A DNA stretch of 64,000 nt from NCBI GenBank assembly GCA_018238545.1, contig JABCTC010000017.1, positions 8,836-72,835 on the forward strand. Reading direction: 5' to 3'. The notes beneath the pieces are model-generated. The model did not search any database. It saw only the letters and a list, made by a program, of their open reading frames with translations, and was not told the origin of the DNA. Shown piece after piece: positions 14,318 to 30,052 of this stretch. The position numbers and the translations under genes were made by a program. Source of the DNA: Candidatus Heimdallarchaeota archaeon. GTDB lineage: Archaea > Asgardarchaeota > Heimdallarchaeia > Heimdallarchaeales > Heimdallarchaeaceae. Each line of letters opens with the position of its first letter. Position 1 is the stretch's first letter.

Positions 14318-14401
14318 GCTAAACTCTTTTTGCCTTACATCTTTTCTATCCTACCTTCTTGTAAACTATCTTTTCAGATGGGGTTCTATGTAACAAGTGG
14401 C

Positions 14402-14434
14402 GTTTAACAACTGTTTAACGGGTGTTTAACACCC
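14402..14434. repeat. Three GTTTAAC units at 11-bp period, ending in a GGGTGTTTAACACCC near-palindrome
   Basis: GTTTAAC at 14402, 14413 and 14424. Confidence 0.7.
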
Positions 14435-14602
14435 TTCTAATATGAACTCTTTTGAGAACTTCCACAATCGGATTTTTACTGCTTTGTGTTACCTTTAATT
14501 CAAAGAGATTTAAAATTCAGTTTCTAAGGATCTTCAAACAAAATTACTTAGTTTTAAGATATATTCATTCTTGTATTTACTACTGTTTTGCAGAAAGATT
14601 GC

Positions 14603-15574
14603 CTATTTCTTCTTTTTTTCTTCTTTTTCTTGTTGTTGAATAATAATGGGAGTTACTTGCTTTATGTAAGCTTTTCCTTTGTGATTTTCAATGATTTTAA
14701 TAGCTGTAGTTCCATCAAAAGTATGTGTTGTGGCATGGAATAATGATAAAACTAGATCTTGAAATGTTTGATCATCCTCAAGGTGTTCAATTATTAAGCC
14801 TAATGCTTCAGCCTGATCTCTATCAATATGACGTCCATGACTTTTGTATGTAGAATGGTCAGCTAATTTCTCAGCAATATCTTTTGATATTTCGTCTTTA
14901 TTTTCGCTATCTTTAAACATGTAATCATTAAGGAAAGTTGCAACTAAATCTTTTGACAAATCTAAAGCATTTTGACATTGAATCAATAGAGCTGGACCAT
15001 ATTGACCTAGAATTGGCATCCATACTCCCATGTTTTTTGAATCTTCCTTGCATTCTGCTGAAGCTTTATCAAATTGATCAAGAATAGCTTGAGCAGGTAT
15101 AGAACTCACTCCTAAAGGGGTCGATAATATTATCTGAGAATCAATAGGACCAAGATAAGAATGCTTCCCCATTACAATCTTATCTGCTGCACAAGCTAAC
15201 ATTGTAGCAGCAGACATTGCCCCTTGAGGTATGATTGCTCGTATGTAATCATATTTTGTTCTTAGGTATTTAACAAAACTTTCAGTAACTTCAGCAGATC
15301 CACCAGGACTGTGAATAATCAGATCAAGTTCTTTTCCATCTAATCCATGAATAACTTCCATTAAACCTTGAATATCGTCTTCTGTAATACTAATTAGTTG
15401 TGGTGAAATATTAATACTTGCTTGTGTCCATTTTGTTGCATAGATTATTGTATCCCTTTCAGTAAATTCATTAAGCTTGTAGAGATATCGTCGTCGAATC
15501 GAATCATAAGGTGTTTTGGAACCCTTATCTTTCTTTTTCTTTAATTCGTTTAATATTCCACTCCACGTAGGCAC
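14603..15574 (-). CDS. ClpP-class serine protease, SDH_sah/S49-like family
   Basis: LDLIIHSPGG, AMSAATMLAC, LGPIDSQ, SHGRHI. Confidence 0.85.
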   Translation of the reverse strand: MPTWSGILNELKKKKDKGSKTPYDSIRRRYLYKLNEFTERDTIIYATKWTQASINISPQLISITEDDIQGLMEVIHGLDGKELDLIIHSPGGSAEVTESFVKYLRTKYDYIRAIIPQGAMSAATMLACAADKIVMGKHSYLGPIDSQIILSTPLGVSSIPAQAILDQFDKASAECKEDSKNMGVWMPILGQYGPALLIQCQNALDLSKDLVATFLNDYMFKDSENKDEISKDIAEKLADHSTYKSHGRHIDRDQAEALGLIIEHLEDDQTFQDLVLSLFHATTHTFDGTTAIKIIENHKGKAYIKQVTPIIIQQQEKEEKKKK

Positions 15575-15589
15575 TTTGTTCCCTCACTG

Positions 15590-15778
15590 TTAATTGATAC
15601 TAGTACTATCTGATACTGAAACCACACTCTTTGGCTTGGTTTCGTTTAGGTATCGATTGGAAATTTCAAGTAATTCTATATAATTACCATAAACAATCGT
15701 TAGCTCCTCTAATCCTGGTTGTTCTTCTAACTCTTTAATAAATGATTCAATCTCCTTTTTTCTACCCTTCTTTCTCAT
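15590..15778 (-). CDS. Small hypothetical protein upstream of the SDH protease
   Basis: 62-aa ORF ending 15 bp before the protease start; GAGG-type RBS in the gap. Confidence 0.6.
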   Translation of the reverse strand: MRKKGRKKEIESFIKELEEQPGLEELTIVYGNYIELLEISNRYLNETKPKSVVSVSDSTSIN

Positions 15779-15856
15779 AATTTTAGATTCTTTGTGGAAA
15801 CTATTAAGTTTTTTGTAAGAATATCTATAGTTCTCGTATTAAATACAAAAGACATA

Positions 15857-16018
15857 TTATTTGCTATTTATTTCCTTTTCATACAGAAAGCGTAAAGCTG
15901 TTCTAATGATTTCGGATCTATCCATATACTTGCCTGAATCTTCTAATTCCTGCAGCATTATCTTCAGCTTGGTGGGAAGTCTTACACCTATAATCTGTTT
16001 TTCTGCTTCAATCTCCAT
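15857..16018 (-). CDS. 53-aa CopG/Arc-type ribbon-helix-helix regulator (absent from the ORF track)
   Basis: MEIEAEKQIIGVRLPTKLKIMLQELEDSGKYMDRSEIIRTALRFLYEKEINSK; starts 2 bp after the helicase stop. Confidence 0.85.
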   Translation of the reverse strand: MEIEAEKQIIGVRLPTKLKIMLQELEDSGKYMDRSEIIRTALRFLYEKEINSK

Positions 16019-16020
16019 TC

Positions 16021-27692: not shown

Positions 27693-27800
27693 ACAATGAA
27701 ACAGAAAAGGCTACAGAAAAGTTATTGAATAAGAAAATATTCCGAGGATTCTTTATTAGAAGGCTTTTAAACCGACTATTAAAAAATATAAGGGATAAAT
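27693..27800 (-). promoter_or_regulatory. AT-rich candidate CRISPR leader, if the array is read on the minus strand
   Basis: Minus-strand repeat ends ATTGCAAC (handle-like); TTTAAAA and TTATAT boxes at about 27765-27790. Confidence 0.4.
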
Positions 27801-27944
27801 TATGACTTGGGGCTTTGGTTCTCCGAGAGAATACGTTATTTCCCACGATAACCGTTTCCTTAATGCAATTAAGAAAGAGCACAATAAAACATGAATCTCT
27901 TTAGAGCTGCTTACTATAAAGGCTTGAAGTCTCAATTTCATATT

Positions 27945-27962
27945 TTATTCCACGTGGAATAA
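27945..27962. repeat. Perfect 18-bp palindrome TTATTCCACGTGGAATAA (same 12-bp core as 26470)
   Basis: Read directly from the sequence. Confidence 0.85.
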
Positions 27963-28006
27963 TTTCTGTTTTCTTGATCAAGTTATTCTAACCATTCTTT
28001 TATTTC

Positions 28007-28144
28007 TCATTGGTCCGAACAAATCAGCTTAAATTTACATTTCTGACATTTTTTAGAATAAAAATTCCATCTAGAACAATTGCTGGCTTTAGCTTTTTCA
28101 ATTGTTGGTAGATCCTTGTAAGTTAAATTAGCAGCAGGTTGCAT
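28007..28144 (-). CDS. 45-aa Cys-rich micro-protein (C-x9-CxxC-x5-C), absent from the ORF track
   Basis: MQPAANLTYKDLPTIEKAKASNCSRWNFYSKKCQKCKFKLICSDQ; ATG abuts the TAA of the upstream gene; AGGAAGG RBS. Confidence 0.65.
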   Translation of the reverse strand: MQPAANLTYKDLPTIEKAKASNCSRWNFYSKKCQKCKFKLICSDQ

Positions 28145-29464
28145 TTAGTTTCCTTCCTTTATTCTGTAAATCTTCTTTCTAGCTCCTTTGCCTTCTCGTT
28201 CTTCTTTGAGAGCTGTTATTTTTCCTAAATCTACTAGCTTCCTGATATGATAATAGATCCGATTATAATCTAATTGTAAAGTTGTCATAAAGTCCTGGAG
28301 AGTATAGCTTTTTTCAGCAAGTAGTTTAAGTATTTCTGTCTGTAAGGAGTCACTCCTAGCTTGGTTAGTTCTACTTACTTTGAGAAGTTGTATTTCCTCA
28401 GCTAGAAATTCACTCTCTTTTTTCATATTTGTATCATGATTCAGGATAAGATCAGCTTGATGGTCCATTCTCTGCAGTAGCATTAAATCATTAGTTGCTG
28501 TTTGTAGCTGGTATTGGGCTAGCTGATTGACATTATTATCAACTCTTCTTAATAAATTATGATTTTCATAATAATCACTATCTAGCTGTTGGACCACATT
28601 TCTATTGTAATCTAACACAGAATTAAGTTTAGAAAAACTTTGATTGCTCGAGATTGTAAATTGCTTAAGTACAGTATTCATTTTATTGAAAACAGTCCCA
28701 ATACCTAAGTCTCTCTCATTCCTTTCAAGCTGTTTAATCATTCTATCAACAGGTATATCTACACGGCTTAATTGGACTTCTTTTCGTAGTCCTTCTTTCT
28801 TATTGTAAGCTGTTAAAAGAATATTTTCAAAAGCTTGCACACTAATATAATTAGCTCCTGCTATTCTCTGAAAATCATAATCTTGGTTCAAATCTAAATT
28901 TACTAACTGCATTTTATTATGATCGCTCTTTATACTTTTCAAGTGTAAGACCGTATCAATTGCAACAATCAAAGAGCGGAATTGATAACAATCTAAAGCT
29001 TTCTTCCATCCACTACATTTGAGATCTATCCTGATACTTTGAGTAGCTTTGTAAAAAGAAAAACGGATAGGTTGATTAAGTTCTAAAAAGGGGACATCTA
29101 ATTTTTCATCTTTTCTTACAGGGACAGCTCGAATCATAATCATTACTCGATGAATGAATAAAGGTTCATCAGGATTGAAAAAGGAATCTAACTCATAAGG
29201 GATCTGTTCAAGAGGCTTAGGTTTGAAATGATAGTAGAGATATGGTTTTGTTTCTGTTCTAGCTATAGAGTATTTTGAGCTGGTTGTTAATCTTGTTAAT
29301 ATTCTTCTAATACTCGAAGCTTTACAATCAGGATAAAGCTGTTTAATGGCTTTCACTATTTCCCCACAAGTAAGCTTATGATGAGAAGATTCAATTACTG
29401 CAATGATAGCTGTAGTTAAGGAAGAATGAATATTCTGTTGAGCTGTATCTTTTACTTCTAACAA
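28145..29464 (-). CDS. wHTH + Rep_trans-like replication-initiator core + coiled coil + wHTH
   Basis: LVNLDLNQD and AYNKKEGLRKEVQL resemble the Rep_trans DxxxD and YxK..RxE motifs; GGAGGT RBS before TTG at 29464. Confidence 0.55.
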   Translation of the reverse strand: MLEVKDTAQQNIHSSLTTAIIAVIESSHHKLTCGEIVKAIKQLYPDCKASSIRRILTRLTTSSKYSIARTETKPYLYYHFKPKPLEQIPYELDSFFNPDEPLFIHRVMIMIRAVPVRKDEKLDVPFLELNQPIRFSFYKATQSIRIDLKCSGWKKALDCYQFRSLIVAIDTVLHLKSIKSDHNKMQLVNLDLNQDYDFQRIAGANYISVQAFENILLTAYNKKEGLRKEVQLSRVDIPVDRMIKQLERNERDLGIGTVFNKMNTVLKQFTISSNQSFSKLNSVLDYNRNVVQQLDSDYYENHNLLRRVDNNVNQLAQYQLQTATNDLMLLQRMDHQADLILNHDTNMKKESEFLAEEIQLLKVSRTNQARSDSLQTEILKLLAEKSYTLQDFMTTLQLDYNRIYYHIRKLVDLGKITALKEEREGKGARKKIYRIKEGN

Positions 29465-29497
29465 TTTGAATGACCTCCTGAAGTTGAAATGATAAAT

Positions 29498-29543
29498 GAG
29501 CGACAAGCGACATAGGGAGATAGGTTAATTGTCGCTCTTTTTT
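29498..29543. other. 9-bp GC-rich stem-loop upstream of the Rep-like gene (nick site or terminator candidate)
   Basis: GAGCGACAA-22nt-TTGTCGCTC followed by a T-run on the + strand. Confidence 0.5.
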
Positions 29544-30052
29544 CAAAAATTTTGAAAGTGATAATCTGTTGAATAAGAACCTTTGAAACAATAAATAAGC
29601 TAATAATTGTTACTAATATTTTTAAAGAATGTTTTTCAAAAATATAGGTAGTTGAGACAATTACTTTTTCAAAAATAATCTGTTTAACCTTCCTTTTTAG
29701 AAGGTAGTGTTTACATACGAAATACGGGTGAATAACAACAGTAGAGCTTATTAAACCCTTAATTTCCTCTGGACAATGATTCAAAGGATCTACTAGATGG
29801 TTAACTAAGTTATTCAAAGTGACAAGAAGGTATAAAGTCGTTTTAGAACCTCTGAAGCTCTCTGCCTTACATTTTCCTATTATACCCTTATCAGAAGGTA
29901 ACTTATTAGAAGGAGTTCTAATTAAGAAGAGAGTACCTTGACTTCGAGTGGAGAAATTTTTGGATTTGTAAGGAACTAATGTTAATAAGTCTCTGAAGGT
30001 ATGTTTTCTTAGTTCTAAAAGTGGTTCTATGAGATTTGTTAACCTTAAAAAA

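Follow-up and report, generated by a model that had tools for sequence, protein, structure and literature searches.

Staphylococcal cassette chromosome (SCC) elements form tandem composites, and their Ccr proteins are element-encoded serine recombinases of about 450-560 amino acids (aa) with a zinc ribbon that act at one site inside a gene. Integrative mobile elements exploiting Xer (IMEX), among them CTX and TLC, depend on a conserved host site and a Xer tyrosine recombinase, and some carry Rep_trans-type initiators (CTX; PMC13107129). Elements described from Asgard archaea include HeimM1, HeimM2, HeimV1, HeimV2 and the aloposons, in whose description the term "serine recombinase" does not appear (PMC8813620), and the integrated elements of Atabeyarchaeia, with recombinases of the tyrosine type (PMC11529989). 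Here we analyze a 64,000-nucleotide stretch of a Candidatus Heimdallarchaeota archaeon assembly (GCA_018238545.1, contig JABCTC010000017.1; G000:C26:8836-72835 in our coding, where G, L and C stand for genomes, loci and contigs compared), hereafter the window. The assembly is 3.6 Mb long and 92% complete, and the family set comprised 30 Heimdallarchaeaceae genomes, two of them closed (G040 and G041; 3.1 and 3.3 Mb). Between a CoA-activase-type gene that ends at 14317 and a PHP-family gene that starts at 30029, the window holds an element of 15,532 bp. We propose, with a rough probability of 0.78 and from sequence comparison, that it is a chimeric integrative plasmid of Heimdallarchaeaceae that docked by serine-type recombination into a pre-existing host site. 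A first-pass annotation of this DNA had listed most of its genes and overlooked the multi-site serine recombination system that hosts it.

The two ends of the element are the recombined halves of a 28-bp imperfect inverted repeat. At attL (14370-14397, + strand) a host left half is joined to an element half, with the crossover dinucleotide GT at 14383-14384; at attR (29902-29929, +) an element half is joined to a host right half, with GT at 29915-29916. The centers of the 28-bp halves lie 15,532 bp apart, which gives the length of the integrated element. Immediately inside attL is an arm of three direct repeats with an 11-bp period (14398-14442, +), candidate binding sites for an accessory protein or the recombinase. 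Outside the element, the docking site has host accessory sequence on its left (14329-14369, +), which is 80-93% identical in the empty and filled sites of congeners whatever the neighboring genes, and an accessory near-palindrome on its right (29930-29952, +), which is kept in empty sites, both closed genomes included. An element-side copy of the left host motif, at the same spacing from the core (29860-29901, +), is also found upstream of the G032 and L154 junctions. The GC content of the element equals that of the host, with no step at the ends, and the window contains no tRNA or known RNA as an insertion target. The boundaries first given for the element, 14331 and 29930, are close to its ends, but 14331-14382 is host sequence that is kept in empty sites. 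Two further candidates were set aside: a perfect inverted repeat at 14433/29904, considered as a boundary, is a subsite, as empty sites put the crossover 50 bp further left; and an open reading frame (ORF) at 29458-30093 lies antisense to attR and the host PHP gene, with which it overlaps, and most of it is probably spurious. Its distal part does correspond to genes called in relatives.

A host sequence of ~95 bp centered on the 28-bp repeat is present in 17 of the 24 genomes of the genus, once each or split, with varying neighbors. Twelve of these carriers have the site empty, supplying the unoccupied locus that the first-pass annotation had recommended looking for, and five have it split by an insertion; the lineage-wide synteny that would have spoken against a mobile block was not seen. 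The four other split sites (G002, G010, G016 and G032) hold different cargo. In G010 a repeat-protein gene and a subtilase lie between the same two junctions without a recombinase, G002 has one membrane-protein gene and a right junction that is not recognizable, and G016 has tandem cassettes linked by donor-type junctions. The arm with its three 11-bp-period repeats is common to all the filled sites; it is found at the junctions of G002, G010, G016, G032, L149, L151 and L154 and is absent from empty sites. Searches with the exact repeat in metagenome, viral and congener collections, and with the donor-junction pattern in IMG/VR, gave no match. One truncated gene copy, one decayed small ORF and the draft nature of this metagenome assembly might suggest an immobile decaying island or an assembly chimera. 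We consider this highly improbable given that both att sites are intact, the core genes are open and under purifying selection, pieces 91-98% identical recur in other genomes and samples, and both host flanks are conserved and collinear in congeners, ending abruptly. The element is real and probably still mobile.

The junctions further indicate where the strands were exchanged. Empty sites rebuilt from junction pairs are the same as the empty sites observed, at two different loci. In another genus, a 13.8-kb sister element (L149, GCA_025960485.1) interrupts the orthologous site, unoccupied in G036, and does so in the opposite orientation; its rebuilt donor center reads AC, versus GT at the L154 donor junction. 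These two donor sites have the same 13 arm-side bases and the same five nearest bases on the other side, and differ at two further arm bases. Matched centers were found at GT, GC and CG junction pairs. Whether two sites rejoin under a serine recombinase, and in which orientation, is set by their central dinucleotide (PMC5062993). From the junction comparisons, including the inverted insertion with its flipped center, we place the crossover on the central two bases, and the sequences thus point to exchange at a dinucleotide that sets both partner and orientation. A site of ~14 bp per side would suit an enzyme that lacks a zinc ribbon, judging from integrase-DNA structures.

The same 28 bp can also be read as 11-6-11, the layout of dif (PMC8371274). 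The site is conserved independently of its neighbors, the tandem build-up is reminiscent of IMEX arrays, and a serine recombinase placed in the middle of an element and lacking a zinc ribbon could be a resolvase. On these grounds the sites could be ordinary dif-like tyrosine targets and the element a true archaeal IMEX, with the serine recombinase only resolving plasmid multimers. Three observations make this very unlikely. Donor and host sites mismatch within the six central bases that would form the tyrosine overlap: the left and right junctions of the window differ there, and the element-type base is native, recurring in the independent elements L149, L151 and L154. The inverted insertion coincides with the flip of the central two bases. 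Finally, the family has no conserved tyrosine recombinase, with none detected at E<=1e-8 in the closed genome G040 and none near the docking site. The sporadic tyrosine recombinases of the family are at most 34% identical to the XerA-like clade described below, and no pair exceeds 45%. The only two in this assembly lie on short, unrelated contigs of under 3 kb (C3 and C13), of which C13 looks bacterial and may be contamination.

Serine-type docking would have several targets in this host. A profile built from 15 empty GT sites and scored on intergenic DNA returned ten matches in this genome, attL and nine others, compared with 0-2 for 20 column-shuffled control profiles; attR was missed because the spurious ORF masks it. 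Besides GT, the centers among the matches are TG, GA, GG/CC, CT and GC. The TG site at C29:14576 recurs in 19 genomes from three genera, both closed genomes among them; its center is invariably TG, although the adjacent bases vary. The GC site at C109:12717 is empty in this genome; in G032 it is filled by an element whose junctions rebuild the empty site and which has a Rep-like gene and mini-arrays along with a recombinase 94% identical to that of the window. Recombinase-free cassettes also occupy these sites. On a JGI contig, the toxin-immunity pair discussed below stands alone as a 2.5-kb cassette between two CG junctions. The GT site was found in two further genera as well, and each closed genome has two intergenic GT sites, identical between the species (G040:C1 821972 and 2122015; G041:C1 921226 and 2034055). 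Within each closed genome the two lie 1.1-1.3 Mb apart, roughly symmetric about 1.47 Mb in both. Strict site patterns missed the sites of the closed genomes; a looser pattern found them, and some loose matches inside genes were discarded.

The serine recombinase of the element (20108-20857, - strand, 249 aa) comprises a catalytic and a recombinase DNA-binding domain (PF00239 E 1e-16, weak PF07508) and ends after the latter, without a zinc ribbon or coiled coil. The host encodes two chromosomal paralogues, A (G000:C88:39687-40430) and B (G000:C6:7206-7922), about 70% and about 45% identical to the element enzyme, which groups with A and not with B. The catalytic Ser and Arg motifs are intact and aligned in all three copies. 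A and/or B occur in 27 of the 29 other family members (28/30 with this genome), whereas the 52 genomes examined from the rest of the class have neither (E<=1e-15). Host A is 249 aa long in every full-length copy extracted, has varying neighbors and largely groups by genus; the A, B and element enzymes together span 238-249 aa. The element copies form one clade among the A sequences, the base of A not being settled by the tree. Values of dN/dS were about 0.02-0.07 for host A and about 0.08-0.16 for the element copies. A third, mobile-looking group of short recombinases, 55-60% identical to that of the element, is represented by G032:C220 (L066 3169-3873), G009:C29, G012:C118 and G037:C375, and more distant short groups (34-42%) are found in G036-G039. 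An XerA-like tyrosine recombinase of about 305-340 aa, so named without an XerA-specific profile, is present in 14 of 16 sister-family genomes from three families, 48-60% identical to the G020 copy. This clade has no counterpart in the 30 family genomes, the two closed ones included, and the distributions of XerA-like and A/B enzymes are exactly complementary across the four families.

In the mechanism we propose, the host keeps several conserved intergenic 28-bp inverted-repeat sites, about ten here, each with a fixed central dinucleotide, and has A and B as its short chromosomal serine recombinases. A look-alike site would be brought in both by circular elements and by cassettes that lack a recombinase. 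As exchange would take place at the central two bases, the incoming dinucleotide would select the site and the orientation, and as a usable site would be regenerated, cassettes would pile up in tandem. The A-related recombinase of the element, alone or with host A/B, very probably catalyzes the reaction. Host A/B probably move the recombinase-free cassettes, and the helicase and/or the Rep-like protein described below likewise probably replicate the circle after excision.

The use that the host itself makes of the sites can be read in two ways. Most simply, a housekeeping function, plausibly the resolution of dimers, passed to A/B and their sites, and elements exploit this machinery. To the tentative proposal that chromosome dimers are resolved in this way in place of XerA we give slightly less than an even chance, and we hold just as tentatively the broader view that Heimdallarchaeaceae replaced XerA/dif by a serine pair acting on sites kept apart largely by a two-base code, which plasmids, toxin-immunity cassettes and defence genes use to address their targets. 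In its favor are the exact complementarity with the XerA-like enzymes, the arrangement of two paralogues as in XerC/D, and strong purifying selection though most sites are empty. Alternatively, with the integration mechanism unchanged and the host function alone different, the sites and recombinases could serve cassette capture, as integron-like landing pads, or the sites could be bound in regulation or chromosome organization, XerA having simply been lost. There are many sites and not one, which speaks against dimer resolution, as do the two directly oriented GT sites of G041, and fixed, differing central dinucleotides are unnecessary for sister-site resolution; recombinase-free cargo cassettes are common, and a cas8b-7b-5b operon begins right after one site. 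We regard a cassette-capture or structural role and dimer resolution as about equally likely.

Judged by gene order, the element is chimeric: part helicase/protease element, part Rep-like/mini-CRISPR plasmid, with toxin-immunity genes in addition. Its left part (helicase operon, ribbon-helix-helix (RHH) gene, protease and arm) has the order of L149, L153 and L154, the last of which is circularly permuted around a donor-type junction. Its right part (Rep-like gene, array, non-coding region, regulator block and recombinase) has the order of L152, which is terminally redundant with a 10,172-bp period, has a Rep-like protein and a recombinase 91-94% identical to those of the window and two mini-arrays, and lacks the helicase and the toxin. 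The match of the two halves to two separate sister elements bears out the earlier description of a composite integrative plasmid. The recombinase-regulator block, common to both types, could be a route of their recombination. A further sister element, L067 (DXJF01000005.1), has the same block, and its cargo is a complete type I restriction-modification system. The recombinase and the Rep-like protein have their relatives in records labeled Heimdallarchaeota/Heimdallarchaeaceae, in agreement with the Asgard host first supposed.

Nearly all of the gene parts first listed are present at the positions given for them, including the recombinase, the helicase operon, the protease pair, the toxin/immunity-like pair and the cas-less mini-array. 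About six RHH plus winged helix-turn-helix (wHTH) regulators had been counted; our count, made mostly by inspection, is five to six for RHH-like proteins and several for wHTH proteins, with PF01402 on relatives. As reported, no capsid, terminase, conjugation or cas genes were recognized in the element, some of its small ORFs lying outside the scan. At the left end, a 323-aa SDH/ClpP-fold serine protease (14603-15574, -; PF01972 E 8e-17, phrog_11747 E 1e-85) has a distant (28%) SDH counterpart at the same position in L149. The ORF of 62 aa upstream of it (15590-15778, -), without a PADLOC family, is a possible partner or substrate. The helicase operon is headed by ORFs of 117 and 155 aa (18219-19041, -), the former preceding the helicase in L149 and L153 too, and ends with an RHH protein (15857-16018, -) whose relatives, 73-80% identical, carry PF01402. 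Between them lies a 733-aa AAA+ replication helicase-like protein with wHTH domains (16021-18222, -), which has a Walker A motif at residue 216 and weak MCM_WH_arc and AAA matches. Its relatives (56-64% identical) carry PF27228 MTBMA_p00010_2nd, a domain named from a Methanothermobacter plasmid protein. No solved-structure relative was found, a word search of the genome collection confirmed no copy, and none was found in the two closed genomes.

Divergent regulators, a 61-aa RHH-like protein (-) and a 224-aa protein with RHH and coiled coil (+), occupy 19181-20111 and lie beside the recombinase in L066, L149, L152 and L153 as well. On its other side is the shared regulatory block (20878-22142), with proteins of 111, 82 and 64 aa (-) and a 147-aa wHTH/RHH protein (+), kept in helicase-type and Rep-type sister elements. 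Cargo ORFs at 24883-26397 encode 116 aa (-), 79 aa (+, with the second copy of a 188-bp repeat inside) and 230 aa (+), with no family above cut-off. The non-coding region at 26658-27425, 78-88% identical to L152, is a candidate origin or control region. The second Rep-like initiator first reported exists as a gene (28145-29464, -, 439 aa), and its identity as a Rep protein is that of a candidate: it combines a wHTH domain, a Rep_trans-like core, a coiled coil and a second wHTH domain, and may be a rolling-circle initiator. An invariant Tyr lies in a YNKK motif (Tyr-x-x-Lys), an Asp and a Glu are conserved, and the protein is 91% identical in L152. The leads from the atlas, Phage_CRI/Rep_trans, scored 0.76-0.78, under 0.8. 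Fold searches with the whole model were dominated by wHTH and returned wHTH matches only, which is not evidence against a Rep fold.

The toxin module is flanked by the 188-bp direct repeats; the first (22327-22514, +) is a 5'-truncated copy of the 79-aa gene without a start codon and is 80% identical to 25433-25620. The toxin-like protein (23211-24278, +, 355 aa) has a signal peptide, a caspase/CHAT-fold His-Cys domain in which the His-Gly and Ser-Cys motifs are invariant, then a Gly/Pro linker and a variable hydrophobic C-terminus. Its structural model matched the SAVED-CHAT fold at E 4e-5 and, more weakly, an RTX cysteine protease (mean predicted local distance difference test score 56, higher in this domain). 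In two relatives the N-terminal part is 89-94% identical and the hydrophobic tail 38%. A candidate immunity membrane protein of 157 aa follows (24297-24770, +), as it follows the toxin in L058 and G032, and orphan copies about 50% identical occur in G016, L058 and G000:C119. The promoter region of the toxin (23029-23204), which holds one copy of the arm repeat, is reused in G016 before the orphan immunity gene. By its sequence, this is the architecture of a polymorphic toxin with an adjacent candidate immunity gene and orphan copies of the latter. The toxin is rather likely to be exported, cut by its own caspase-fold domain and active through the membrane in killing non-immune neighbors. The earlier idea that the element is aimed at other cells gains partial backing from this domain architecture and from the cassette behavior.

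The mini CRISPR array (27426-27692, - strand as judged from the repeat end and flanking motif) consists of four identical 37-nt repeats and three spacers of 39-41 nt. No further copy of the repeat turned up in this genome, a search of 82 genomes of the class gave no cas-linked host array that contains it, and related cas-less arrays were seen only on sister elements. The middle spacer (27539-27579) matches G000:C23:157-197 at 35/41 positions, with CCT on the 5' side, compared with a best match of 30/41 among 40 shuffled spacers; for spacers 1 and 3 the search covered this genome and the loci compared. A CCT motif is used by some type I-B systems. The three spacers are open in the same + frame (27463-27655), so that guides made from the - strand would be complementary to the mRNAs of their targets, which with n=3 may be chance. 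Arrays of L152 (8038-8077) and L209 hold a related spacer with about 8 mismatches, suggesting a common target. Downstream of the Rep-like gene in L139, at the array position of the window, are three copies of a different 20-22-nt repeat with 66-67-bp spacing (2512-2670), possibly a decayed array or iterons. In this genome, type I-B cas8b-cas7b-cas5b genes lie at G000:C75:11228-14352 (L220) and start about 240 bp after a 28-bp site with the center CC. The Cas7 of this contig has no match in 29 family members; the operon is possibly a cassette, and the tail of the contig has a higher GC content and may be foreign. A weak and partial Cas1 match on C36 was not counted as a cas operon.

The gene matched by the spacer encodes a large surface-type protein with relatives on the co-binned contigs C67, C2 and C128. 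These and C23 (L224-L226, L033) look virus-like, with surface proteins of 1,100-1,460 aa and membrane proteins; C67 and C2 have a gene block in common, to which C67 adds a P-loop protein and IbrA/IbrB-like genes. The layout of C67 recalls the wyrdvirus morphogenesis block (10.1101/2021.07.29.453957), no database match having confirmed this. An array-less RAMP module on C67 resembles type IV-B. The spacer-target protein was found in none of the viral and metagenome collections, the C67 ATPase had no match in phage and viral collections, and PHROG, phage and IMG/VR searches did not confirm a viral nature. That the guides are loaded into the host type I-B complex against an enveloped virus-like element has, in our estimation, an even chance. 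The earlier view that the element is armed against other mobile elements thus keeps one imperfect spacer match in its support, next to an incomplete host Cas set. The element could also be a helper-dependent satellite of the co-binned enveloped virus-like elements, its guides restraining the helper. Transfer and capsid genes are missing from it, mini-arrays are a recurrent feature of the family, and one spacer matches a gene with relatives on these contigs; against this, no packaging signal or sequence in common with the virus-like contigs was found, and their viral nature was not confirmed. We think this unlikely, and the label "satellite" in the first-pass annotation found no direct support.

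Several points weigh against the integrative plasmid as we reconstruct it. The recombinase gene sits in the middle of the element, and the enzyme is without the zinc-ribbon/coiled-coil domain to which integrases owe their directionality. The count of about ten sites depends on the threshold, since GT sites of this family served to train the profile. The two GT sites of the closed genome G041 are in direct orientation, so the dinucleotide alone cannot separate all sites. The Rep-like protein has no family match above cut-off (neither PF02486 nor PF25227), and neither cas3, cas6, a convincing cas1 nor any other array was found in the 92%-complete assembly.

The element marks out a family of Asgard integrative plasmids whose ends are exactly placed, and a candidate polymorphic toxin moves between Asgard hosts in cassette form. 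In cells, dimers are known to be resolved by tyrosine recombinases, and a serine pair with several dinucleotide-coded sites, if true, would be a different solution: chromosome dimer resolution by serine recombinases, exploited by parasites of a class peculiar to it, in the Asgard class nearest to eukaryotes. The 249-aa enzymes would show whether integrase-like reactions work without a zinc-ribbon domain, a matter relevant to compact genome-engineering tools. No description of this recombinase-site system was found in the literature searched, the coverage of which is incomplete, and the multi-site serine recombination system is apparently undescribed.

Single parts of the element have closer precedents. 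Short cas-less arrays with spacers against other elements are carried by SPV1 and SPV2 (PMC6858448); here the carrier is plasmid-like, and no cas-linked host array has its repeat. Polymorphic toxins with caspase-like peptidases, reported to be rare in archaea, likewise have a signal peptide, a caspase-like domain before a variable C-terminus, an adjacent small gene and orphan copies (PMC3482391), whereas the present protein is archaeal, has 355 aa and a hydrophobic tail of no known family, and is moved in recombinase-site cassettes. The Rep-like protein resembles Rep_trans/Rep-Arvir (DUF7845; PMC13107129) in its Tyr in a YxxK context, conserved acidic residues and wHTH fusion, and differs in a much shorter core and a wHTH domain at both ends. 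The published Asgard elements are also integrated in Asgard hosts, 3-45 kb long and partly CRISPR-linked, but they use tRNA/rRNA sites or tyrosine integrases, and their gene content differs by description; the combination seen here, which the first-pass annotation did not recognize from archaeal elements, fits none of the published descriptions of HeimM1/M2, HeimV1/V2, aloposons or Atabeyarchaeia elements. Integrons use the tyrosine recombinase IntI with attI and hairpin attC sites; here no tyrosine recombinase lies near the site.

With IMEX/pdif elements such as CTX and TLC the present element has in common a conserved 28-bp host site, the frequent use of host recombinases, regeneration of the site and tandem build-up. 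It differs in the serine signature, a 2-bp center, and in the several host sites with different centers; the target is a conserved 28-bp inverted repeat but one of many, and its dif role is putative. No XerA-like enzyme was found in the host family to do the exchange as a Xer tyrosine recombinase does, and some elements carry a copy of the host-type recombinase. With SCC (CcrA/B or CcrC plus the MCM-like helicase Cch; PMC7581432) it has in common a core of serine recombinase and AAA+ helicase, variable cargo, site specificity and two recombinase paralogues. Here, in contrast, the enzymes have 238-249 aa, the two paralogues are fixed in the chromosome, and the sites are many and intergenic. The CcrA model NF047344 matched the element recombinase at E 3e-5 with 23 bits, against a cut-off of 700, setting it apart from the large Ccr proteins; the helicase is a putative counterpart of Cch, with its Walker A motif and weak MCM_WH_arc/AAA matches. 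The element works like an IMEX or an SCC, yet departs from each in the very traits that define it.

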